The notes beneath the pieces were generated by a model. That model searched no databases and was not told the origin of the DNA. It was given only the letters and a program-made list of their open reading frames with translations. This document shows, in pieces, positions 2,261 through 21,729 of a stretch of DNA of 24,000 nucleotides. The translations under genes and the position numbers were made by a program. Every line of letters begins with the position of its first letter. The first letter of the stretch is position 1. The stretch is from Enterococcus camelliae (GTDB lineage Bacteria > Bacillota > Bacilli > Lactobacillales > Enterococcaceae), in contig NZ_JBHUMO010000056.1 of the NCBI RefSeq assembly GCF_042685105.1, positions 65,383 through 89,382 on the forward strand. The letters are read 5' to 3'.

Positions 2261-3349
2261 ATGAAAATGAAAAGAGGAAAACAAGTGAAGTGTTCTATAT
2301 ATGGTTTAACAATGAATGAATTAACGGAATGGTTTTTAGAGCAAGGCGAAAAAAAATTCCGTGCTACCCAAGTTTGGGAATGGCTCTATCAAAAAAGAGT
2401 TCAGTCTTTTGCTGAGATGACGAATTTATCAAAAACGGTCATTGCAAAATTAACGGATGCATTTGTTATCAATCCTTTAAACCAAGTGATTGTGCAAGAA
2501 GCCCAGGATGGCACGGTAAAGTACTTATTTCAATTGCCCGATAAGCATATGATTGAAACCGTGATGATGCCCCAAGAATACGGGGTGTCCGTGTGTGTGA
2601 CGACTCAGGTTGGCTGTAATATCGGGTGTACATTTTGTGCCAGTGGTATTTTAAAGAAACAACGCGATTTGACTGCTGGTGAAATTGTGGCGCAAATAAT
2701 GTTGGTTCAACATTACCTTGATGAAAAAGGTCAAGGTAATCGAGTGTCGCACATTGTCGTTATGGGGATTGGGGAGCCATTTGACAATTACAACAATGTT
2801 ATGAATTTCTTGCATGTAGTCAATGATGCCAAAGGACTTGCCATTGGTGCCAGACATATCACCGTTTCGACAAGCGGTTTAGTACCAAAAATTAAGGAGT
2901 TCGCAGACAATGGCCTCCAAGTTAATTTAGCCATTTCATTGCATGCCCCGAACAATGATGTCCGCACCTCAATCATGCGCATCAATCGGACATTTCCAAT
3001 TGAAAAACTAATGGATGCAGTCGATTATTATTTAGAAAAAACCAATCGTCGTATTACCTTTGAATACATTATGTTGAGTCATGTCAATGATCGCGTGGAG
3101 CATGCGCAACAGTTGGCTGATTTATTAAAGGACAAGAAGAAATTAACTTATGTAAATCTGATTCCTTATAACCCAGTCAGTGAACATGACCAATATGCGC
3201 GTAGTTCACGAAATGATGTGATGAAATTTTACGATGTTTTGAAGAAAAATGGGGTCAATTGTGTGATACGTAAAGAGTATGGAACAGATATTGACGCTGC
3301 TTGTGGACAATTGCGTAGCAAACAAATGAAACAGAGCACAACAAACTAA
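2261..3349 (+). CDS. rlmN: 23S rRNA/tRNA (adenine-C2)-methyltransferase RlmN, radical SAM
   Basis: Radical-SAM cluster motif [12 protein letters not shown]-terminal YGLT..EL..W......[13 protein letters not shown] block typical of RlmN, and C-terminal ..DIDAACGQL. The true start is probably GTG 2285, preceded by AAGAGGAAA at 2271-2279, rather than ATG 2261. Confidence 0.93.
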
Positions 3350-3384: not shown

Positions 3385-3515
3385 GGAAAAATGGAGGGAA
3401 GCAAGTGCTGTTTATAAAAATTTAGAAGCCGTAGATGAAGAAATTCGTTTGTGTAGTTGTTTACAAAATAAAGAATAAAATGTTTTTGGCCTAAAAAAAC
3501 GATGAATAAAAAATA

Positions 3516-3545
3516 AGGACACAAATTTTACACATTTTTTACAAT
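3516..3545 (+). promoter_or_regulatory. candidate distal oppA promoter P1: AGGACA (3516-3521), 18-nt spacer, TACAAT (3540-3545)
   Basis: Hexamers read from the sequence, with an A-rich UP-like tract upstream. The -35 match is weak. Confidence 0.25.
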
Positions 3546-3580
3546 TATGAAGAAAAAATGAAATTTTTATAAAATACTGC

Positions 3581-3609
3581 TTGCTTTTTTAATAATTACT
3601 AATTAAAAT
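3581..3609 (+). promoter_or_regulatory. candidate proximal oppA promoter P2: TTGCTT (3581-3586), 17-nt spacer, TAAAAT (3604-3609)
   Basis: Hexamers and spacing read from the sequence, about 60 nt upstream of the oppA start. Confidence 0.35.
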
Positions 3610-3631: not shown

Positions 3632-3646
3632 CATTTTCTGAAAAAA
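3632..3646. promoter_or_regulatory. candidate CodY box CATTTTCTGAAAAAA (12/15 match to AATTTTCWGAAAATT)
   Basis: Read directly from the sequence. It sits between candidate promoter P2 and the oppA SD. opp operons are classic CodY targets in low-GC Gram-positives. Confidence 0.3.
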
Positions 3647-3668: not shown

Positions 3669-5336
3669 ATGAAAAAGAGATGGGCCTATAGCTTGGTTAC
3701 GATTTTTGGACTTGCACTAGCAGGTTGTTCTACTACAGGTGGATCTTCCTCATCGACAGCGACATCCAATAGTTCAGGAGGAGAAGCAAAAGATCAGACC
3801 TTTAAAGTCGTTGTGCAACAAGAAATGCCAAGTGCTGATCTATCATTGGCAACCGATACGATTAGTTTCAGTGCATTAAATAATGTGTACGAAGGAATTT
3901 ATCGCTTAAATAAAGACAACAGTCCAGAACCTGCGGGCGCTTCTGAGAAAGCCAAAGTGAGTGATGATGGTCTAACCTATACAATTAAATTACGTAAAGA
4001 TGCCAAATGGTCAAATGGGGACCCCGTAACGGCCGCAGATTATGTTTACGGATGGCAACGAACCGTTAATCCGAAAACAGCATCAGAATATGCCTATCTT
4101 TTTTCACCAGTCAAAAATGCGGATGATATCACAGCTGGTAAGACAGCGGTCGATCAATTAGGAATTAAGGCCGTTAATGATCATGAATTAGAAATTACTT
4201 TATCCAAAGCTACACCGTACTTTGACTATTTATTAGCATTCCCTTCATTTTTCCCACAAAATCAAAAAGTCGTTGAAGAGAATGGTTCAAAATATGCTCA
4301 ATCTAGTGCTACAGCAGTTTACAATGGACCATTTACCTTAACAGACTTTGATGGACCTGGTACTGATACTGAGTGGAGTTACACGAAAAATGATCAATAT
4401 TGGGACAAAGAAAATGTGAAATTAGCTAAAGTCGAAGTGAGTGTTGTGAAAGAATCATCAACTTCTTTGAACTTATTCCAAGATGGAGAAGCGGATGATG
4501 TCATCCTTTCTGGTGAATTGGCACAACAAATGGCCAATGACAAATCATTTGTCTCTCAACCAGAAGCTTCTACGACCTATCTAGAAATGAATCAACGGAA
4601 GGCAGACTCACCATTTAAAAATGAAAACTTAAGAAAAGCAATTTCTTACGCTATTGATCGTGACTCGTTGGTAAATTCTATTTTAGGTGATGGTTCAATT
4701 GCTTCTACTGGTTTAGTACCATCTGGGATGACATTTAGTCCTAAAAACAAAGAAGATTTTACAAAATCGGCTGGGACTGAACTTTCTTACAGCAAGAAGG
4801 AAGCGAAAGAATATTGGGAAAAAGCGAAAAAAGAATTGGGTATTACTTCTTTGAAGTTTGATATTTTATCTTCTGATACCGATTCATCTAAAAAAATTAC
4901 CGAATATCTTCAAAGTGCCATTCAAGAATCTTTGGAAGGTGTGACTGTTACGCTAAGTCCAGTACCATTCTCTGTTCGTTTGGACCGTTCAAATGCCGGT
5001 GATTTCGATGTTGTCATGGGTGGCTGGGGAGCTGACTATGCTGATGCAAGTAGTTTCTTAGATTTATTTGTGACAGGCAATTCTTATAACCGTGGGCAAT
5101 GGAGCAATTCAGAGTATGATGCAACAATCAAAGCAGCTAGTACAACCGATGTTAGTGATCCAGAAAAACGCTGGGATGATTTGGTTAAAGCTGAAAAAGT
5201 TTTAATGGATACACACGGCGTTGTTCCATTGTATCAAAAAGCCGAAGCACACTTACGTAATACGAAAGCGAAGGGCGTGGTTGCCCATGGTGCGGGGGCA
5301 CAATACGACTATAAATGGACGTACATCGCTAAATAA
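3669..5336 (+). CDS. oppA: oligopeptide ABC transporter substrate-binding lipoprotein (SBP family 5), paralogue 1
   Basis: Lipobox LALAGC at the N-terminus and family-5 SBP blocks (WSNGDPVTAADYVYGWQR, VMGGWGADYADASSF). SD AAAGGAGAG lies upstream of ATG 3669. Confidence 0.9.
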   Translation: MKKRWAYSLVTIFGLALAGCSTTGGSSSSTATSNSSGGEAKDQTFKVVVQQEMPSADLSLATDTISFSALNNVYEGIYRLNKDNSPEPAGASEKAKVSDDGLTYTIKLRKDAKWSNGDPVTAADYVYGWQRTVNPKTASEYAYLFSPVKNADDITAGKTAVDQLGIKAVNDHELEITLSKATPYFDYLLAFPSFFPQNQKVVEENGSKYAQSSATAVYNGPFTLTDFDGPGTDTEWSYTKNDQYWDKENVKLAKVEVSVVKESSTSLNLFQDGEADDVILSGELAQQMANDKSFVSQPEASTTYLEMNQRKADSPFKNENLRKAISYAIDRDSLVNSILGDGSIASTGLVPSGMTFSPKNKEDFTKSAGTELSYSKKEAKEYWEKAKKELGITSLKFDILSSDTDSSKKITEYLQSAIQESLEGVTVTLSPVPFSVRLDRSNAGDFDVVMGGWGADYADASSFLDLFVTGNSYNRGQWSNSEYDATIKAASTTDVSDPEKRWDDLVKAEKVLMDTHGVVPLYQKAEAHLRNTKAKGVVAHGAGAQYDYKWTYIAK

Positions 5337-5386: not shown

Positions 5387-5427
5387 AGTTTAATTAGGAT
5401 ACTATGCCAAAAATAAGGGGGAACACG

Positions 5428-7077
5428 ATGAAAAAGAAACAGATTATTGGTTGGTTAGCTTTATGTGGAATTGTTTTAGCGGGTTGTACAACTGGAGGAT
5501 CTACCAAAGAAAGTGGAACTTCAAGTTCAACCACAAAACAAGAATTTAATGTTGTTGTTCAACAAGAAATGCCAACAGCAGATTTATCAGTGGCGACAGA
5601 TACGATTAGTTTTACGGCATTAAATAATGTGTATGAAGGATTATATCGTTTAGACAGTGAAAATAAACCACAGGCAGCTGGTGCTGCAGAATTGGCCACT
5701 GTTAGTGATGATGGACTAACCTACACACTAAAATTACGAGAAGATGCCAAATGGTCAAATGGCGACCCTGTAACGGCGGCAGATTATGTTTATGGTTGGC
5801 AACGTACAGTCAATCCAAAAACAGCTTCAGAATATGCTTATTTATATGAATCTGTTGAAAATGCAACAGAAATCACTAACGGAGAAAAAACAGTTGATCA
5901 ATTGGGAATCAAAGAAAAAGGTGATTATGAGTTAGAAATTAAACTAACAAAACCAACACCGTATTTCCAATACCTATTGGCTTTCCCTTCATTTTTCCCA
6001 CAAAATCAAAAAGAAGTGGAAAAAGAGGGCGATAATTATGCCAAGACAAGTGCGAATGCTATCTACAATGGGCCATTTACACTTGAAGGATTTGATGGCC
6101 CAGGTACGGATACTGAATGGAGTTACAAGAAAAACAAAGAATATTGGGATAAAAAGAATGTAAAACTGGAAACAATCAATGTCAGTGTTGTAAAAGAATC
6201 CTCAACTTCTCTCAATCTTTTCAAAGATGGTCAAGCGGATGATGTGATTCTTTCAGGTGAACTAGCACAACAAATGGCTAATGATAAGGCTTTTGTCTCA
6301 CAAGAAGATGGTCGTACTTCTTATTTAGAATACAACCAACGAAAAGCAGATTCTCCATTTAGAAATACCAAATTACGTCAAGCCATTTCCTATTCCATTG
6401 ACCGTAATGTGTTAGTGAAAAATGTCTTAGGTGATGGTTCAATTGCTTCAACAGGTTTGATTCCAAAGAACTTGACATTTGGACCTGATGGTACTGAATT
6501 TACCAAAGCATCTGGAAAACAGGTAAGTTATGATGCTGACAAGGCGAAAAAACTTTGGGCAGAGGCTAAAAGTGAACTAGGCATCAGCTCATTGACGTTT
6601 GATATCATCGCTTCAGATGATGATTCAACGAAAAAAGTAGTTGAGTACATTCAAAATGCCATTCAAGAAAACTTAGAGGGGACTAAGGTAACCGTGACGC
6701 CTGTACCATTTTCAGTTCGTCTAGATCGTTCAACATCAGGTGATTTTGAAGTTGTCATGGGTGGTTGGGGAGCTGACTATGCTGATGCAAGTAGCTTTAC
6801 AGATCTCTTTGTCACTGGCAATTCTTACAACCGCGGACAATGGAGCAATGCCGAATATGATAAGGTAAATAAAGCGGCAGGAACAACCAATGTAGCAAAT
6901 CCTGAAAAACGTTGGGCCGACTTACTTGATGCAGAAAAAATAATTATGGCGGATCAAGGTGTAACGCCGGTCTTCCAAAAAGCTGAAGCACATTTACGAG
7001 CAACCAAAGTAAAAGATGTTGTTGTACACAGTGCAGGAGCTCAATACGATTACAAATGGGCTTATATTAAAGAATAA
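5428..7077 (+). CDS. oppA: oligopeptide ABC transporter substrate-binding lipoprotein, paralogue 2
   Basis: The ORF opens at 5404, but SD AAGGGGG (5415-5421) lies 6 nt before ATG 5428 (MKKKQIIGW..). Lipobox VLAGC. Long blocks are identical to paralogue 1. Confidence 0.9.
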   Translation: MKKKQIIGWLALCGIVLAGCTTGGSTKESGTSSSTTKQEFNVVVQQEMPTADLSVATDTISFTALNNVYEGLYRLDSENKPQAAGAAELATVSDDGLTYTLKLREDAKWSNGDPVTAADYVYGWQRTVNPKTASEYAYLYESVENATEITNGEKTVDQLGIKEKGDYELEIKLTKPTPYFQYLLAFPSFFPQNQKEVEKEGDNYAKTSANAIYNGPFTLEGFDGPGTDTEWSYKKNKEYWDKKNVKLETINVSVVKESSTSLNLFKDGQADDVILSGELAQQMANDKAFVSQEDGRTSYLEYNQRKADSPFRNTKLRQAISYSIDRNVLVKNVLGDGSIASTGLIPKNLTFGPDGTEFTKASGKQVSYDADKAKKLWAEAKSELGISSLTFDIIASDDDSTKKVVEYIQNAIQENLEGTKVTVTPVPFSVRLDRSTSGDFEVVMGGWGADYADASSFTDLFVTGNSYNRGQWSNAEYDKVNKAAGTTNVANPEKRWADLLDAEKIIMADQGVTPVFQKAEAHLRATKVKDVVVHSAGAQYDYKWAYIKE

Positions 7078-7162: not shown

Positions 7163-7498
7163 TTACAGAAAAGCCAAGCCTAAAAATACCAAACTCAAAA
7201 GGAATAGTATCAAGGCAGGTTCCAACCAAAAGCGATAACTTGTTCGACCGATTTCTGAAAGCGTGAGATAGTCTTCTTTTGTTTTCCTAAAAGCTTTTTT
7301 CCATGAATATTGAAAGAAGTCAAGTGATCCAGAGGCGCAAACCCATAAAAAGCTTCCAATGATTAAAAAGAATAGAGTGAAGGAAAATAATAGGTCAGAC
7401 ACACGGGACCAAGCAAAATCTGAGAAGATCATTGGCCATAACAAGCTAATAATCAACCCCGCAATACTGATGATGAGGGTACTTTTACGAAGGTGCAT
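7163..7498 (-). CDS. small integral membrane protein (111 aa, about 3-4 TM helices), function unknown; possibly DUF3899-like
   Basis: Hydrophobic segments in the translation, SD AAGGAG (reverse complement of 7506-7511) upstream of the ATG, and its own promoter candidate. The family assignment is from memory only. Confidence 0.6.
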   Translation of the reverse strand: MHLRKSTLIISIAGLIISLLWPMIFSDFAWSRVSDLLFSFTLFFLIIGSFLWVCASGSLDFFQYSWKKAFRKTKEDYLTLSEIGRTSYRFWLEPALILFLLSLVFLGLAFL

Positions 7499-7587: not shown

Positions 7588-8529
7588 GTGAATAGTTTTG
7601 TTAAATATATCTTAAAAAGAATTTTTTTTATGGTGGTTACGTTGTGGATTATTGCGACGATTACCTTTTTCTTAATGAAATTGCTACCTGGTACACCCTA
7701 TACGAATGCAGAAAAATTGAGTGCACAACAAATTGCCCTGTTAAATAAACAAATGGGCTTGGATAAGCCAATGATTGTGCAATATGGTCTATATTTGAAT
7801 AATTTATTGCACTTTGATTTGGGGATTTCCTTCCAATTTAAAAACCAACCAGTAGCCAATCTGCTGAGTGCTCGTATTGGACCATCCTTACAATTAGGGA
7901 TTCAAGCAATCATTGTTGGGACACTAGGAGGCATTATTCTAGGAGCTATTTCAGCGATGAAACAAAATACTTGGATCGATACAACGGCAACCTTAGTGGC
8001 GATTCTTGGACGCTCCATTCCAAACTTTGTGTTTGCTGTCTTATTACAATATGTGTTTGCCATGAAATTGCACATTTTACCAATTGCAAAATGGGAAACC
8101 TTTGCTTATACAATCTTACCAACGATTGCCTTGGCAATGTCCCCATTAGCAGATTCTGCTCGGTTTATTCGGACGGAAATGGTGGAAGTGTTGCATAGTG
8201 ATTATGTGGAACTGGCACGTGCAAAAGGCTTAAGCCGTTGGGGAATTGTTTTTCATCATGGCTTACGTAACAGTTTGATTCCATTATTAACACTGTTAGG
8301 ACCATTAGCAGTTGGACTGATGACTGGTTCGCTGGTTGTTGAAAATATTTTTGCTATTCCGGGTATCGGAGAGCAATTTGTCAAATCAATCATGACAAAT
8401 GATTACCCAACGATTATGGCTGTGACGATGCTTTATTCAGCAATGTTGGTTGTGGTTATTCTAATTGTCGACATTTTATATGGAATTGTTGATCCAAGAA
8501 TTCGTGTATCAGAAGGGAGTCGTAGCTAA
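7588..8529 (+). CDS. oppB: oligopeptide ABC transporter permease OppB
   Basis: GTG start 7 nt after AGGAGG (7575-7580). Typical OppB/DppB N-terminus (FVKYILKRI..) and six TM segments. Confidence 0.9.
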   Translation: MNSFVKYILKRIFFMVVTLWIIATITFFLMKLLPGTPYTNAEKLSAQQIALLNKQMGLDKPMIVQYGLYLNNLLHFDLGISFQFKNQPVANLLSARIGPSLQLGIQAIIVGTLGGIILGAISAMKQNTWIDTTATLVAILGRSIPNFVFAVLLQYVFAMKLHILPIAKWETFAYTILPTIALAMSPLADSARFIRTEMVEVLHSDYVELARAKGLSRWGIVFHHGLRNSLIPLLTLLGPLAVGLMTGSLVVENIFAIPGIGEQFVKSIMTNDYPTIMAVTMLYSAMLVVVILIVDILYGIVDPRIRVSEGSRS

Positions 8530-9575
8530 TGGCTAATTCAGCACAAATAAATGAAAAAGAACTAGCGGCGATTCCGTTAACATCGTTTGAACCTTTAGAA
8601 AAGAGTACGGTTGAAAAGCGTGAAGAAATTGCTATGCCTTCCTTAACGTTTATGCAAGATTCTTGGCGTCGTCTAAAGAAAAACAAAGCAGCCGTTTTTT
8701 CAATTGTCTTGTTGGCAATCATTATTGCAATCTCGTTAATTACCATTTTTGTGTCTCCACATAATCCTACAACACAAAATGTGAAATATACCAATCTGCC
8801 ACCCAAAATTCCAGGTATCAATATTACTGGCCTGAATGGACATGCCGAAGTGGGAGGGAAAGTGGTTGACAAATATGCGCAAGCCAATGTCCCTGCTGGC
8901 ACCTATTTTTATCTTGGAACGGATAGTCTGGGCCGTGATTTATTAAGTCGCTTATTTATGGGGACACGAGTATCATTATTAATTGCCTTTATCGCCGCGT
9001 TGCTCGACATTGTTTTCGGAGTGACTTATGGCTTGATTTCTGGCTTACTAGGTGGGCGTGTGGACAATATCATGCAACGGTTTTTAGAAGTGATTTCTGG
9101 TATTCCTAATCTAGTTGTGATGATTTTAATGTTGGTTGTTTTTGAACCAGGTATTCCATCAATTGTTGCAGCTATGGCAATTACGAACTGGATACCAATG
9201 GCTCGGATTGTCAGGGCGCAGACGATGAAGCTCAAAGACCAAGAGTTTGTATTGGCTGCGACGACACTAGGGGAAACACGTTCGAAAATAGCATTTAAGC
9301 ATATCTTACCGAATATTTCGAGTGTCATTATTATCCAAATGATGTTTAGTATTCCGTCGGCGATTTTCTTTGAAGCTTTCTTGAGTTTCATTGGTTTAGG
9401 GCTTCGTCCACCGGTTGCTTCCTTGGGTACATTGTTAAGTGATGGTTACAAGACCTTTCTATTTTTGCCCTACCAATTATGGGTCCCAGCAATAACGCTC
9501 TCGGTCATTATGATTGGCTTTAACTTACTAGCTGATGGGCTACGTGATGCGTTTGATCCGAAGATGAAAGAGTGA
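8529..9575 (+). CDS. oppC: oligopeptide ABC transporter permease OppC
   Basis: TAATG stop/start overlap with oppB. OppC N-terminal block (QDSWRRLKKNKAAVFS) and BPD-transport permease core. Confidence 0.9.
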   Translation: MANSAQINEKELAAIPLTSFEPLEKSTVEKREEIAMPSLTFMQDSWRRLKKNKAAVFSIVLLAIIIAISLITIFVSPHNPTTQNVKYTNLPPKIPGINITGLNGHAEVGGKVVDKYAQANVPAGTYFYLGTDSLGRDLLSRLFMGTRVSLLIAFIAALLDIVFGVTYGLISGLLGGRVDNIMQRFLEVISGIPNLVVMILMLVVFEPGIPSIVAAMAITNWIPMARIVRAQTMKLKDQEFVLAATTLGETRSKIAFKHILPNISSVIIIQMMFSIPSAIFFEAFLSFIGLGLRPPVASLGTLLSDGYKTFLFLPYQLWVPAITLSVIMIGFNLLADGLRDAFDPKMKE

Positions 9576-9579
9576 TTGA

Positions 9580-10620
9580 ATGAATAAGATAATTGAAGTG
9601 AAAAATTTAGAGATTTCTTTCGATACATTTGCCGGAAAAGTTCAAGCCATTCGAAATGTCAGCTTTGATTTGTATCAAGGCGAAACGTTAGCCATTGTTG
9701 GTGAATCGGGAAGTGGGAAATCAGTAACCACACGAAGCATTATGGGGTTGCTAGCTAGCAATGCCAATGTTGAGAATGGGGAGATTTTATTTAACGGTTC
9801 GGATATCGTAAAGAAAAGTGAAAAGGAATTACAAAAAATTCGAGGAAAAGATATTGCGATGATTTTCCAAGATCCAATGACTTCACTGGATCCAACGATG
9901 CCAATTGGCAGACAGGTAGCAGAATCTTTGATCAAGCATACCAAAATTTCCAAAAAAGAAGCACTAAAGCAAGCATTAGAATTGTTAAATTTGGTTGGCA
10001 TTCCTAACGCCGAAAAGCGGCTAAAAAATTATCCGCACCAATTTTCTGGTGGACAACGACAACGGATTGTGATTGCGATTGCGTTGATTTGTTACCCACA
10101 AGTGCTCATTGCTGACGAACCTACGACGGCCTTAGATGTGACCATCCAAGCCCAAATTATCGAATTACTGAAAGATATTCAACAAAAAATGAATTCATCC
10201 ATCATTTTCATTACCCATGATTTAGGAGTTGTTGCCAATGTCGCCGATCGTGTTGCAGTGATGTATGGTGGGAAAATTATTGAGATTGGAACGGCTAGAG
10301 AAATTTTCTATAATCCACAACATCCGTATACTTGGGGGTTGCTTGGTTCAATGCCTACGTTGGAAAGCACAGGAAAACGGTTATATGCGATACCAGGTTC
10401 CCCTCCTGATTTATTAAAGCCACCAACTGGGGATGCGTTTTATCCACGGAATGAATACGCAATGAAAATTGATGCTGAACAAGAACCACCATTTTTTGAT
10501 GTTTCACCTACCCATAAGGCAGCAACTTGGTTATTAGCACCTCAAGCGCCAAAAGTGACACCACCAGAAGAAATCCAAATTCGCTGGAAAAAATTTCAAG
10601 AGAATGCTTTTGGAGAGTAA
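9580..10620 (+). CDS. oppD: oligopeptide ABC transporter ATP-binding protein OppD
   Basis: Walker A GESGSGKS, signature FSGGQRQR, Walker B LIADEPTTALD, and the oligopeptide-type C-terminal extension. Confidence 0.9.
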   Translation: MNKIIEVKNLEISFDTFAGKVQAIRNVSFDLYQGETLAIVGESGSGKSVTTRSIMGLLASNANVENGEILFNGSDIVKKSEKELQKIRGKDIAMIFQDPMTSLDPTMPIGRQVAESLIKHTKISKKEALKQALELLNLVGIPNAEKRLKNYPHQFSGGQRQRIVIAIALICYPQVLIADEPTTALDVTIQAQIIELLKDIQQKMNSSIIFITHDLGVVANVADRVAVMYGGKIIEIGTAREIFYNPQHPYTWGLLGSMPTLESTGKRLYAIPGSPPDLLKPPTGDAFYPRNEYAMKIDAEQEPPFFDVSPTHKAATWLLAPQAPKVTPPEEIQIRWKKFQENAFGE

Positions 10621-10634
10621 GGAGGGAAAGATAA

Positions 10635-11573
10635 GTGAGTAAAGTCCTATTAGATGTAAAGAATTTAAAACAATATTTTAATGTGGGTCGTAAAGATGAA
10701 GTTAAAGCTGTTGATGATATGACCTTTCACATTTTTGAAGGCGAAACATTTGGTTTAGTAGGGGAATCCGGAAGTGGCAAATCGACGACTGGTCGTTCTA
10801 TCATCCGACTGAATACACCAACTGATGGCACGATTACCTTCGATGGTCAAGATGTGATGAAATTGAAAAGTAAACAAGAATTGAAGGATTTCCGTCGGGA
10901 GGTTCAAATGATTTTCCAGGATCCGTATGCATCGCTTAATCCACGAATGAAAGTGCGTGATATCATCGCAGAAGGAATTGACATTAATCATTTGGCCAAA
11001 AACGAGAAGGAGCGAAATGCACGGGTCGATGAGCTACTGAAAACAGTTGGCTTAAATCCATCACATGGGACACGTTATCCGCATGAATTTTCAGGTGGAC
11101 AACGGCAACGGATTGGGATTGCTCGAGCTTTGGCAGTGGATCCCAAATTCATCATTTGTGATGAACCGATTTCCGCTTTGGACGTATCCATTCAAGCACA
11201 GGTTGTGAATTTATTGCAAGATCTACAAGAAAAACATAATTTAACCTATTTTTTCATTGCACATGATTTGTCGATGGTAAAACACATCAGCGATCGAATT
11301 GGGGTAATGCATCTGGGAAAATTACTTGAAGTAGGGACAAGCGATGAAATTTACCATTATGGTGTGCATCCGTATACCGAAAGTTTGTTGTCTGCGATTC
11401 CTTTGCCCGATCCTGAAAGTGAACGAACAAGAAAACGGATTAAATATGTCGAAGTTCCACAAGCGAATACCGCAAGAAAAATGCAAGAAATTGCACCAGG
11501 TCATTTTATTTATGCGACAGAAGAAGAAGTGCCAATGTATCAAGAAAAATTACGAAAAAAGAAGGAAGTTTAA
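10635..11573 (+). CDS. oppF: oligopeptide ABC transporter ATP-binding protein OppF
   Basis: GTG start after AAGGAGGG. Walker A GESGSGKST, signature FSGGQRQR, Walker B IICDEPISALD. Confidence 0.9.
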   Translation: MSKVLLDVKNLKQYFNVGRKDEVKAVDDMTFHIFEGETFGLVGESGSGKSTTGRSIIRLNTPTDGTITFDGQDVMKLKSKQELKDFRREVQMIFQDPYASLNPRMKVRDIIAEGIDINHLAKNEKERNARVDELLKTVGLNPSHGTRYPHEFSGGQRQRIGIARALAVDPKFIICDEPISALDVSIQAQVVNLLQDLQEKHNLTYFFIAHDLSMVKHISDRIGVMHLGKLLEVGTSDEIYHYGVHPYTESLLSAIPLPDPESERTRKRIKYVEVPQANTARKMQEIAPGHFIYATEEEVPMYQEKLRKKKEV

Positions 11574-11597: not shown

Positions 11598-12605
11598 ATG
11601 AAAGTGTTAAAAGGTTATCGTTTTCGGATTTACCCGGACGAAGAACAATTGACATTTTTTAAGCAAACCTTTGGCTGCGTAAGATTTACGTACAATCAAT
11701 TGTTGATGGCAAGAAAAGGAACAGCAAACTCAGAAGAAAGCATGAAATTAACCCCCGCTGCATTAAAAAAAGACTATCCCTTTTTGAAAAAAACGGATAG
11801 TCTGGCTTTGGCCAATGCACAACGTAATTTGGAGAGAGCCTACGCGAATTTTTTTCAAGGAAGAGCAGGCTACCCAAAACTAAAAAGCAAGAAAAATAGT
11901 TGGCAATCTTACACAACGAATAATCAAAAACATACCATTTATTTTATCGATGGGAAATTGAAACTGCCAAAATTGAAAAGTCTCGTCCAAGTTCACCAAC
12001 ACCGAGAGATAAAAGGGATGATTCGTTCCGCTACGATTTCGGCAAAAAATAATGAAGAATTTTATGTTTCATTGTTGTGTTTAGAAGAGGTTTCATTCTT
12101 GCCAAAAACAAAGAAAGTAATCGGCATTTCTTATTGTCCGCAACGATTGATTCAATTATCGCAATCTTTCGATAATTTACCAAATATTGAAGAACAATTG
12201 CTAGGAGACAAACTGGAAAAAGCCCAAAAGAAATTGCAACTGCGAGCCAAAATCGCTAAAAAACATAAAGTAAGATTAAGAGATGCCAAGAATTATCAAA
12301 AGCAAAAGCAACGAGTGCAAAAGTTAATTCAGGAAAAAGCCTGTAAAAAAAATGATTTTATTGATCAGTTGACGTTTCTCTTAGTCAAAGAGTTTGACTA
12401 TATATTTGTTGAAAAACAACCACGGATAACCGATAGTGAAGAAGACAATCCATTTACTTCAACGGATTGGTATAGTTTTACTCAAAAATTGACGTATAAA
12501 ACGCAATGGTATGGCAAAGAGTATCTCGCGGTTGAGAGTCCGGATGACAGCATTCGTTCTAGTCGAATCATTGAGGAATTAGGAAAACAACAACTTGATT
12601 TGTAA
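11598..12605 (+). CDS. tldR: TnpB-like (IS605 OrfB-derived) protein lacking nuclease motifs: candidate TnpB-like nuclease-dead repressor (TldR), oppF-associated
   Basis: Canonical TnpB N-terminus MKVLKGYRFRIYPDEEQLTFFKQTFGCVRFTYNQLL. The RuvC-I position reads VIGISYCPQ instead of GIDLG. The ORF ends after ..WYGKEYLAVESPDD.., so the CxxC zinc finger and RuvC-III are missing. SD AAGGGGG lies 7 nt upstream of the start, and the start is 24 nt after the oppF stop on the same strand. No tnpA is nearby. Confidence 0.8.
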   Translation: MKVLKGYRFRIYPDEEQLTFFKQTFGCVRFTYNQLLMARKGTANSEESMKLTPAALKKDYPFLKKTDSLALANAQRNLERAYANFFQGRAGYPKLKSKKNSWQSYTTNNQKHTIYFIDGKLKLPKLKSLVQVHQHREIKGMIRSATISAKNNEEFYVSLLCLEEVSFLPKTKKVIGISYCPQRLIQLSQSFDNLPNIEEQLLGDKLEKAQKKLQLRAKIAKKHKVRLRDAKNYQKQKQRVQKLIQEKACKKNDFIDQLTFLLVKEFDYIFVEKQPRITDSEEDNPFTSTDWYSFTQKLTYKTQWYGKEYLAVESPDDSIRSSRIIEELGKQQLDL

Positions 12606-12710
12606 AAAAATCGATCAGAACTGGAAGGGGCTCCAGGGATCGCCTAGGGTATAGAAAAAAGGAAACTTTTTGTTTCTAGGAAAAATGCTCACTAATTATG
12701 AAAAACCAAA
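12500..12710 (+). ncRNA. candidate TldR guide RNA (omega-RNA-like scaffold overlapping the 3' end of the ORF plus a downstream guide); boundaries approximate
   Basis: By analogy with TnpB omega-RNAs, which span the 3' end of tnpB and the downstream flank. The non-coding tail folds into hairpin A (CGATC-agaa-CTGGA-aggggc-TCCAG-g-GATCG, 12612-12642) and stem B (CCTAG 12643-12647 with CTAGG 12676-12680, enclosing GAAAC-ttttt-GTTTC). An unstructured A/T-rich stretch at 12681-12710 follows, just before the convergent terminator. Confidence 0.35.
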
Positions 12711-12740
12711 GAAGAGAGAGGACAGCTGTCCTCTCTCTTC
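12701..12740 (-). terminator. rho-independent terminator of the convergent Nudix/NrtR-like operon; may also stop plus-strand opp/tldR transcripts
   Basis: Perfect 30-nt palindrome GAAGAGAGAGGACAG/CTGTCCTCTCTCTTC (12711-12740). On the minus strand it is followed by TTTGGTTTTT. There is no T-run on the plus strand. Confidence 0.75.
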
Positions 12741-21552: not shown

Positions 21553-21661
21553 TCAGAAGAAACCAAGAAAAATTTAATCTAACTATTAGAAGATTTTCAA
21601 GATTGAATACGAGAGTTACGGTAAAATAATTACATAACCAACAATAACCTTTTTATTTTTC

Positions 21662-21729
21662 AGTAACTCCCTAACCAAGAGTTACTACTCCTTTTTCCGC
21701 TAGGCCTAACCAACCTAGTGGTTTTTTTT
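21662..21729 (+). terminator. two tandem hairpins with identical 9-nt loops (CCTAACCAA); the second is followed by T8
   Basis: AGTAACTC-CCTAACCAA-GAGTTACT (21662-21686) and CCGCTAGG-CCTAACCAA-CCTAGTGG (21697-21721), then TTTTTTTT (21722-21729). Confidence 0.55.

Follow-up and report, generated by a model that had tools for sequence, protein, structure and literature searches.

The window, by which we mean the whole 24-kb stretch of Enterococcus camelliae DNA analysed here, comes from a genome of 2.38 Mb (G+C 38.6%) and contains an oppA-oppBCDF operon with tldR, a gene for a nuclease-dead TnpB homologue, directly 3' of oppF. After rlmN (2261-3349, identified by Pfam) come two oppA genes in tandem, both encoding family-5 solute-binding proteins: oppA1 (3669..5336, + strand; Pfam SBP_bac_5), the presumed regulated gene, and oppA2 (5404-7077, also identified by Pfam), which begins 67 nt after oppA1 and in whose upstream region our site scan found no TAM+seed site of its own. 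These are followed by an antisense DUF3899 gene (7163-7498), by oppB, oppC, oppD and oppF (7588-11573, the stop codon of oppF included) and, 24 nt past that stop codon and without a neighbouring tnpA, by tldR (11598..12605, + strand). The 3' neighbour of the tldR locus is an NrtR-like Nudix regulator gene, convergent with the guide RNA (gRNA), and synteny around tldR is kept in E. italicus, E. cecorum, E. casseliflavus and others. The gene order in the window, antisense DUF3899 gene included, matches that published for oppF-associated TldR loci (bioRxiv 10.64898/2026.09.22.753285). An Rfam scan of the window returned no family for this gRNA and gave a single hit, the Enterococcus sRNA Ref84 (RF02846) at 21636-21729 with 62.7 bits, above the gathering score. 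The oppA1 leader carries a CodY-box-like sequence, CATTTTCTGAAAAAA, at 3632-3646; counterparts, e.g. AATTATTCTGAAAAT, are conserved in the orthologous leaders of TldR-bearing and TldR-less genomes alike, and this conservation supports the view that oppA1 may be under CodY control.

The tldR reading frame is intact and encodes a protein of 335 aa with a Pfam HTH_OrfB_IS605 domain and a weak, sub-threshold match to OrfB_IS605. A PDB sequence search, which found TnpB structures and no deposited TldR structure, aligned it with ISDra2 TnpB (PDB 8bf8 / 8exa) over residues 5-319 (E 9e-27), and across these residues the two proteins share the WED/REC/RuvC-I/II N-terminal architecture. The catalytic residue D191 of ISDra2 TnpB is replaced by S178, E278 is kept as E272, and the truncated C-terminus stops short of both the third RuvC motif (D361) and the zinc finger. 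Judged by its sequence, the window protein is a nuclease-dead TnpB relative in which the catalytic site has been lost, as both the Pfam result and the ISDra2 alignment indicate for a member of the oppF-associated TldRs. ISDra2 TnpB, the ancestral RNA-guided nuclease, likewise has its guide RNA encoded at the 3' end of its gene; the window TldR differs in the D191 to S178 exchange, in the missing zinc finger and RuvC-III and in the lack of an adjacent tnpA, and whereas the function of ISDra2 TnpB is cleavage, that of the window TldR would, by analogy with its published relatives, be repression. The window TldR is 81% identical to the orthologue of E. italicus DSM 15952. Further TnpB/TldR-like fragments are present in the genome outside the window (C44:1-576(-), C44:945-1205(-), C44:6801-6908(-) and C56:145072-146605(+)), among them an N-terminal half that a contig end interrupts and that shares 56-58% identity with the window TldR. 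There is also a second TldR-like group (L005, L008 and L020, from E. lemanii, E. eurekensis and, as a second copy, E. alcedinis) with 55-58% identity and a length of about 300-310 aa, encoded away from oppF; a terminator follows the gene in this group, which has no recognisable scaffold and no TAATTAT guide.

In order to place the junction between scaffold and guide, the tails of about 30 related tldR loci were aligned, from E. italicus, Tetragenococcus pullicola, the E. casseliflavus-group, E. florum, E. alcedinis, E. cecorum and other family members. The gRNA scaffold is almost the same across species whose TldRs are 50-81% identical, and in the aligned tails it reads AACTGGAAGG..CCAGGGATCGCCTAGGGTATAGAAAAAA..TTTTTGTTTCTAGGAA..CAC, followed in every case by TAATTAT[G/A]A..A[A/G]CC. 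Its conserved core, delimited by alignment and folding, occupies 12619..12692 (+ strand) in the window, with GCTCAC at 12687-12692 as the end of the linker, and both RNAalifold and single-sequence folding predict a stem 1 (CTGGA at 12621-12625 with TCCAG at 12632-12636) and a stem 2 (12643-12656 with 12668-12680). When applied to 10 gRNAs, RNAalifold gave two conserved stems with compensatory changes in one pair only, the scaffold being too conserved to offer more. Since the scaffold ends with GCTCAC at 12692 across related loci, the guide starts at 12693; the junction, CAC followed by TAATTAT, was found in 26 loci, and the resulting register agrees with the published E. faecalis target, TAATTATTT, and its TAM, TTTAA. 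The guide in this cross-species register is TAATTATGAAAAACC (12693..12707, + strand), which begins TAATTATGA. By analogy with the published TldR gRNA scaffold of 100 nt (bioRxiv 10.1101/2023.11.30.569447), the 5' end of the RNA would probably lie near 12593, within the 3' end of tldR, and the mature RNA is expected to contain the first 9-11 nt of the guide, the length published for mature guides (bioRxiv 10.1101/2023.11.30.569447). A GC-rich inverted repeat at 12710..12740, to which no strand is assigned, is probably a bidirectional terminator common to the gRNA and the convergent NrtR-like gene. Guide positions 1-7, 9, 12, 14 and 15 are invariant in the 26 loci. Positions 12 and 14-15 (A and CC; window 12702-12707) lie beyond the published mature guides of 9-11 nt and are unmatched in the oppA targets; possible reasons for their invariance are a processing or structural signal, a guide stem-loop of the binary complex, or selection by another target.

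Upstream of oppA1, the likely TldR binding site is 3588-3601, about 45 bases downstream of the match that had been proposed earlier for this DNA. It consists of the TAM 5'-TTTAA-3' (3588..3592, + strand, the oppA sense strand), which is invariant in our alignment and the same as the published TAM of Efa1TldR, and of the predicted target TAATTACTA (3593..3601, + strand). Both the Efa1TldR TAM and the E. faecalis target cited above are given in bioRxiv 10.64898/2026.09.22.753285, and the published TAM-reading residues of Efa1TldR are Q116, L75 and S74. The site is embedded in the spacer of a predicted promoter, with a -35 element TTGCTT (3581..3586, + strand), of which TTG is invariant across species, and a -10 element TAAAAT (3604..3609, + strand), which begins 2 nt after the target, follows the -35 element by 17 nt and shows TA..AT in the same columns of the alignment in every species. 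Guide and target match at positions 1-6, that is, over the invariant seed TAATTA (3593-3598), and again at position 9 (A), with mismatches at positions 7 (C) and 8 (T). A perfect TAM with a 6-nt seed within about 150 bp upstream of oppA is what a 2026 preprint uses to recognize such targets (bioRxiv 10.64898/2026.09.22.753285); positions 3588-3598 present exactly this combination, 76 nt before the oppA1 ATG (3669). Within the 24-kb window, 3588-3592 is the only TTTAN with a 5-nt seed. Across the genome, a scan for TTTAN with the 6-nt seed gave 16 sites, of which five have TTTAA, one of these being window 3588-3598; TAM plus seed alone is not unique, there being four further TTTAA+TAATTA sites, three of them near unrelated genes (a NADH-oxidase-like gene with a DUF1093 gene, a LysM protein gene and polyphosphate kinase).

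When the oppA upstream regions of six species were aligned, a single invariant island, TTG..TTTTTAATAATTA.T..TTA..AT, stood out from surroundings that are poorly alignable (56% mean column identity), and the 11-mer of TAM plus seed is invariant within this otherwise unalignable intergenic region. The site is identical in 4/4 genomes of the genus, and TldR-less orthologues keep the TTGC of the -35 element. A simple promoter scanner made no call for TTGCTT-17-TAAAAT, because its -35 element matches the consensus at only 3/6 positions; we infer from its conservation and its 17-nt spacing that this is the oppA1 promoter. No variation occurs at guide positions 1-7 or target positions 1-6, and beyond the seed the differences in guide and oppA target are uncorrelated; with guide and seed invariant, no compensatory covariation is demonstrable.

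The distribution of this site across genomes follows that of tldR. TAM plus seed adjoins oppA in 20/20 TldR-linked loci and occurs in 0/13 oppA upstream regions from eight TldR-less genomes (no TldR hit at E <= 1e-40), counts that, being drawn from related genomes, do not represent independent samples. For two of the latter, G080 and G024, which have the orthologous oppA-oppBCDF operon, tblastn (E <= 1e-5) likewise found no tldR in the operon region to about 2 kb past oppF. The site lies 57-88 nt before oppA in 19 of the TldR-linked loci. Of the 16 main-clade loci, 15 carry it on the sense strand at a distance of 67-83 nt from the downstream ATG; the exception is E. alcedinis, with a minus-strand site about 160 nt ahead of a distant SBP gene. 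The other four loci (L133, L134, L136 and L137, from genera g3 and g8) form a divergent clade whose TldRs are oppF-linked and show 41-42% identity; there TTTAA is followed by the string TAATTATTT, with the antisense strand carrying the site and the local oppA promoter lying upstream of it, which matches both the target string and the layout published for E. faecalis. Several TldR-less genomes retain the promoter frame with the TAM or the seed scrambled: TldR-less G080 reads TTGCTTTTTTTAGAAATATTTATTAAAC where its TldR-bearing congener G032 reads TTGCAATTTTAATAATTATTCATTAAAC, and in G024, G013 and G028 the TTTAA is kept and TCAAAA, TGAAAA or TCGAAA replaces TAATTA. The guide of G032, TAATTATGACAAACC, differs from the published TAATTATTT guide, and its target layout is the same. 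Selection exerted by TldR, beyond that on the promoter alone, would produce such decay of TAM and seed with the promoter frame kept, and the contrast of 20/20 with 0/13 lends indirect support to RNA-guided DNA binding and oppA repression as the likely functions of the system.

An earlier note on this DNA, in which the tail downstream of tldR was compared by eye with the opp intergenic regions, had placed the target at 3538-3565, with TTTAC as the TAM and overlapping a -10-like TACAAT. The two motifs are indeed there (3538-3542 and 3540-3545), as are all four identities claimed in the oppA upstream region: AATTATGAA at 3543-3551 (= 12694-12702), AGAAAAAA at 3551-3558 (= 12653-12660), ACTAATTA at 3598-3605 (= 12691-12698) and GGAAAAATG at 3385-3393 (= 12679-12687). 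The accompanying caution that matches of 8-9 nt are near chance was borne out by dinucleotide-preserving shuffles of the 68-nt tail against the three opp intergenic regions, in which at least two shared 9-mers appeared in 75% of trials and at least six shared 8-mers in 87%; a 9-mer of the true 15-nt guide matches shuffled intergenic regions in 21% of trials, and AATTATGAA has 61 occurrences in the 2.38-Mb genome. The second and fourth identities fall within the conserved scaffold (in stem 2 and in the linker from stem 2 to the guide), which does not pair with DNA, and therefore cannot be guide-target pairs. The first covers guide positions 2-10, with the register shifted by one base. The third runs from the final two bases of the scaffold into guide positions 1-6 and places them on the second TAATTA (3600-3605), a copy without a TAM; in the repeat TAATTA-C-TAATTA the TAM-flanked copy is the first (3593-3598), and the association of this identity with a 'promoter P2', whose -35 element is that at 3581..3586, had come within 7 nt of the correct site on the wrong copy of TAATTA.

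For 3538-3551 to be the functional site, the guide would have to run from 12694, TTTAC would have to serve as the TAM and the 9-nt pairing at 3543-3551 would have to block the -10 element TACAAT. In favour of such a site, its 9 contiguous identical nt exceed the 6-nt seed at 3593, the combination TTTAC+AATTATGAA occurs once in the genome, G002 and G003, two further genomes of the genus, have the same 9-mer at the corresponding alignment position, and 3538-3565 overlaps a weak promoter-like match with 9/12 matches in the promoter scanner, AGGACA-18-TACAAT (3516-3545). However, a 9-nt identity is at chance level here, and both the 26 loci and the published target put the scaffold/guide junction one base earlier. 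Read in that conserved register, the sequence has TTTTA (3537-3541) in the place of the TAM and sets guide base 1 (T) against C3542, whereas TTTAC, which would need the guide to shift by one base, is not among the reported TAMs, TTTAA and TTTAT (bioRxiv 10.1101/2023.11.30.569447). Nor are TAM and seed conserved at this position in relatives with the same guide: in E. italicus, whose guide is identical, the aligned site is lost and reads GTATATGAA (context ..TTTTTTAAGTATATGAAG..), and in G002 and G003 the bases ahead of the 9-mer are TAGGG or TGGTG, with no T-rich TAM. We consider it highly improbable that TldR acts at this site, which is a chance-level identity. Better TAM-flanked matches, which the earlier note had named as evidence against its site, were found in two places, 3588-3601 and C44:114331-114350; its general idea, that an oppF-associated TldR with a gRNA in its tail targets a promoter upstream of oppA1, holds, and the exact site does not.

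Our preferred reading, to which we assign a probability of about 0.85, is that the locus encodes a standard oppF-associated TldR-gRNA which uses the TAM TTTAA at 3588-3592 and the target at 3593-3601, in the spacer of the oppA1 promoter, to repress oppA1. The guide RNA would be encoded just 3' of tldR, with the guide beginning at 12693, and the ribonucleoprotein would most likely recognize TTTAA at 3588-3592, allowing the 6-nt seed and guide position 9 to pair with 3593-3601. As the oppA sense strand carries both the TAM and the sequence identical to the guide, the guide's pairing partner would be the template strand, with the TAM-proximal end pointing upstream. Lying between the -35 and -10 elements, the complex would exclude RNA polymerase, so that oppA1 and probably also the co-transcribed oppA2 would be repressed. 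For E. faecalis, repression of oppA by blocking of RNA polymerase has been published, and the same has been proposed for E. faecium and E. cecorum. TldR might instead bind the same target, 3588-3601, but act there as an elongation roadblock within a 5' UTR, transcription starting further upstream, for example from AGGACA-18-TACAAT (3516-3545). RNA-seq of E. faecalis V583 places the start site upstream of the target (bioRxiv 10.64898/2026.09.22.753285), the scanner calls the 3516-3545 match and not the 3581-3609 promoter, and a TAM-proximal end that points upstream is the orientation published as effective for 5'-UTR roadblocks. Yet the hexamers of 3516-3545 are not conserved, even in E. italicus, whereas every species, TldR-less ones included, keeps the TTG-N20-TA..AT frame that surrounds the target; moreover, the loci that carry TAATTATTT belong to the divergent TldR clade and have their site on the opposite strand downstream of the promoter, a layout that need not apply here. 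We therefore regard a roadblock as unlikely.

A more sceptical view would hold that 3581-3609 is a promoter with a protein operator only, that TldR-gRNA is inactive or irrelevant and that the seed match is incidental. The match at 3593-3598 is indeed just 6 nt long, a similar motif, TTAATAATTAT, is present family-wide in the promoter of the paralogous oppD2 operon, TldR-less genomes included, and deletion of tldR-gRNA in E. faecalis had no effect or phenotype in standard culture, repression being seen only on overexpression (bioRxiv 10.64898/2026.09.22.753285). On the other hand, that overexpression repressed oppA about 40-fold (bioRxiv 10.64898/2026.09.22.753285), and the intact tldR frame and the highly conserved scaffold and guide are not what an inactive system would lead one to expect. 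Promoter spacers, moreover, are usually free to vary, but here TAM and seed are invariant where tldR is present and degenerate in TldR-less orthologous promoters that keep their -35 and -10 elements. An explanation without TldR is, in our judgement, quite improbable, and we retain promoter occlusion by TldR-gRNA at 3588-3601 as the preferred interpretation.

No other TAM-flanked site in the genome matches the guide as well as TTTAA followed by TAATTATAAACAACC at C44:114331-114350 of the E. camelliae genome (G000; = L001 3991-4010), which has a 7-nt seed and agrees at 13/15 positions. It is on the + strand, antisense to oppD2-F2-B2-C2, in the intergenic region upstream of this paralogous oppD-oppF-oppB-oppC operon, and it covers the -10 element TATAAT of a TTGCAA-17-TATAAT promoter. 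The site is identical in E. italicus, and the other two members of the genus keep the TAM and the 7-nt seed. We had taken this conservation within the genus as support for a second target and have since downgraded it, since the seed is a family-wide promoter element that is also present without TldR: in a survey of 29 orthologous promoters, TATATAATTATTAA was conserved throughout the family, TldR-less genomes included. The position of TTTAA reads CTTAA or ATTAA in most genomes, a full TTTAA being confined to the genus (4/4 genomes), to two g14 genomes, G057 and G088 (in G088 at a different position close by), and to TldR-less G080, and matches to the TAM-distal part of the guide occur only in the E. 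camelliae genome and E. italicus. On this comparison, the C44 seed match is a pre-existing promoter element, to which TAM and distal matches are lineage-specific additions, and the TAM pattern would fit growth of a regulon by TAM gain. That the oppD2-F2-B2-C2 promoter is a second, physiologically used target of TldR-gRNA in the E. italicus lineage is a tentative suggestion, which we think rather doubtful. If it were true, one RNA-guided repressor would control, in one Opp system, the SBPs and, in a second, the membrane/ATPase core, and a second opp target, if real, would extend the regulon idea put forward for E. cecorum (bioRxiv 10.1101/2023.11.30.569447). The element upstream of oppD2 takes the form CTTGCA(A/T)-N17-TATAATTATTAA(G/T/A)AA (L086-L112), family-wide and with or without TldR, and recurs in G024 before another binding-protein gene just 3' of oppF (L119, about 11040-11090). 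It has TTAATAATTAT in common with the oppA target block, and the occurrence of this string in both promoters may reflect a protein operator or common promoter ancestry.

The E. camelliae locus closely resembles the oppF-linked TldR systems known from Enterococcus, namely Efa1TldR of E. faecalis V583, EceTldR and that of E. faecium AUS0004 (bioRxiv 10.1101/2023.11.30.569447; bioRxiv 10.64898/2026.09.22.753285), which have the same order, oppA...oppBCDF-tldR-gRNA, with the antisense DUF3899 gene. Common to all are a nuclease-dead, truncated TnpB homologue, a two-stem scaffold, a guide beginning TAATTAT, the TAM TTTAA, the logic of a 6-nt seed and a target just upstream of oppA. As in E. cecorum and E. 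faecium, the E. camelliae site overlaps promoter elements and has the sense-strand orientation, and its position in the -35/-10 spacer is the E. faecium-type layout (bioRxiv 10.64898/2026.09.22.753285). The E. camelliae TldR is nevertheless only about 41-50% identical to those of the E. cecorum clade and of the divergent clade with TTTAA and TAATTATTT on the antisense strand; pairing of guide and target is weaker, with 6 contiguous nt in the E. camelliae genus against 9 in E. faecalis; and the locus has two tandem oppA genes. Another counterpart is the fliC_P-associated EhoTldR of Enterobacteriaceae prophages, likewise derived from TnpB, nuclease-dead and guided by RNA, which uses steric occlusion to repress a promoter and whose specificity is dominated by the TAM and a seed of roughly 6 nt, but which differs in its 16-nt guide, its TAM, its phage context and its target, host fliC (bioRxiv 10.1101/2023.11.30.569447). 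The E. camelliae locus is an ordinary new copy of the published oppF-linked TldR system and involves no new mechanism. Nevertheless, for this TldR comparative genomics alone has sufficed to establish the register of the guide, the TAM and the target, and to correct a wrong target assignment. The presence of TAM and seed in the promoter spacer together with tldR, and their decay where tldR is absent, is independent sequence support for the published view that oppF-linked TldRs regulate oppA.
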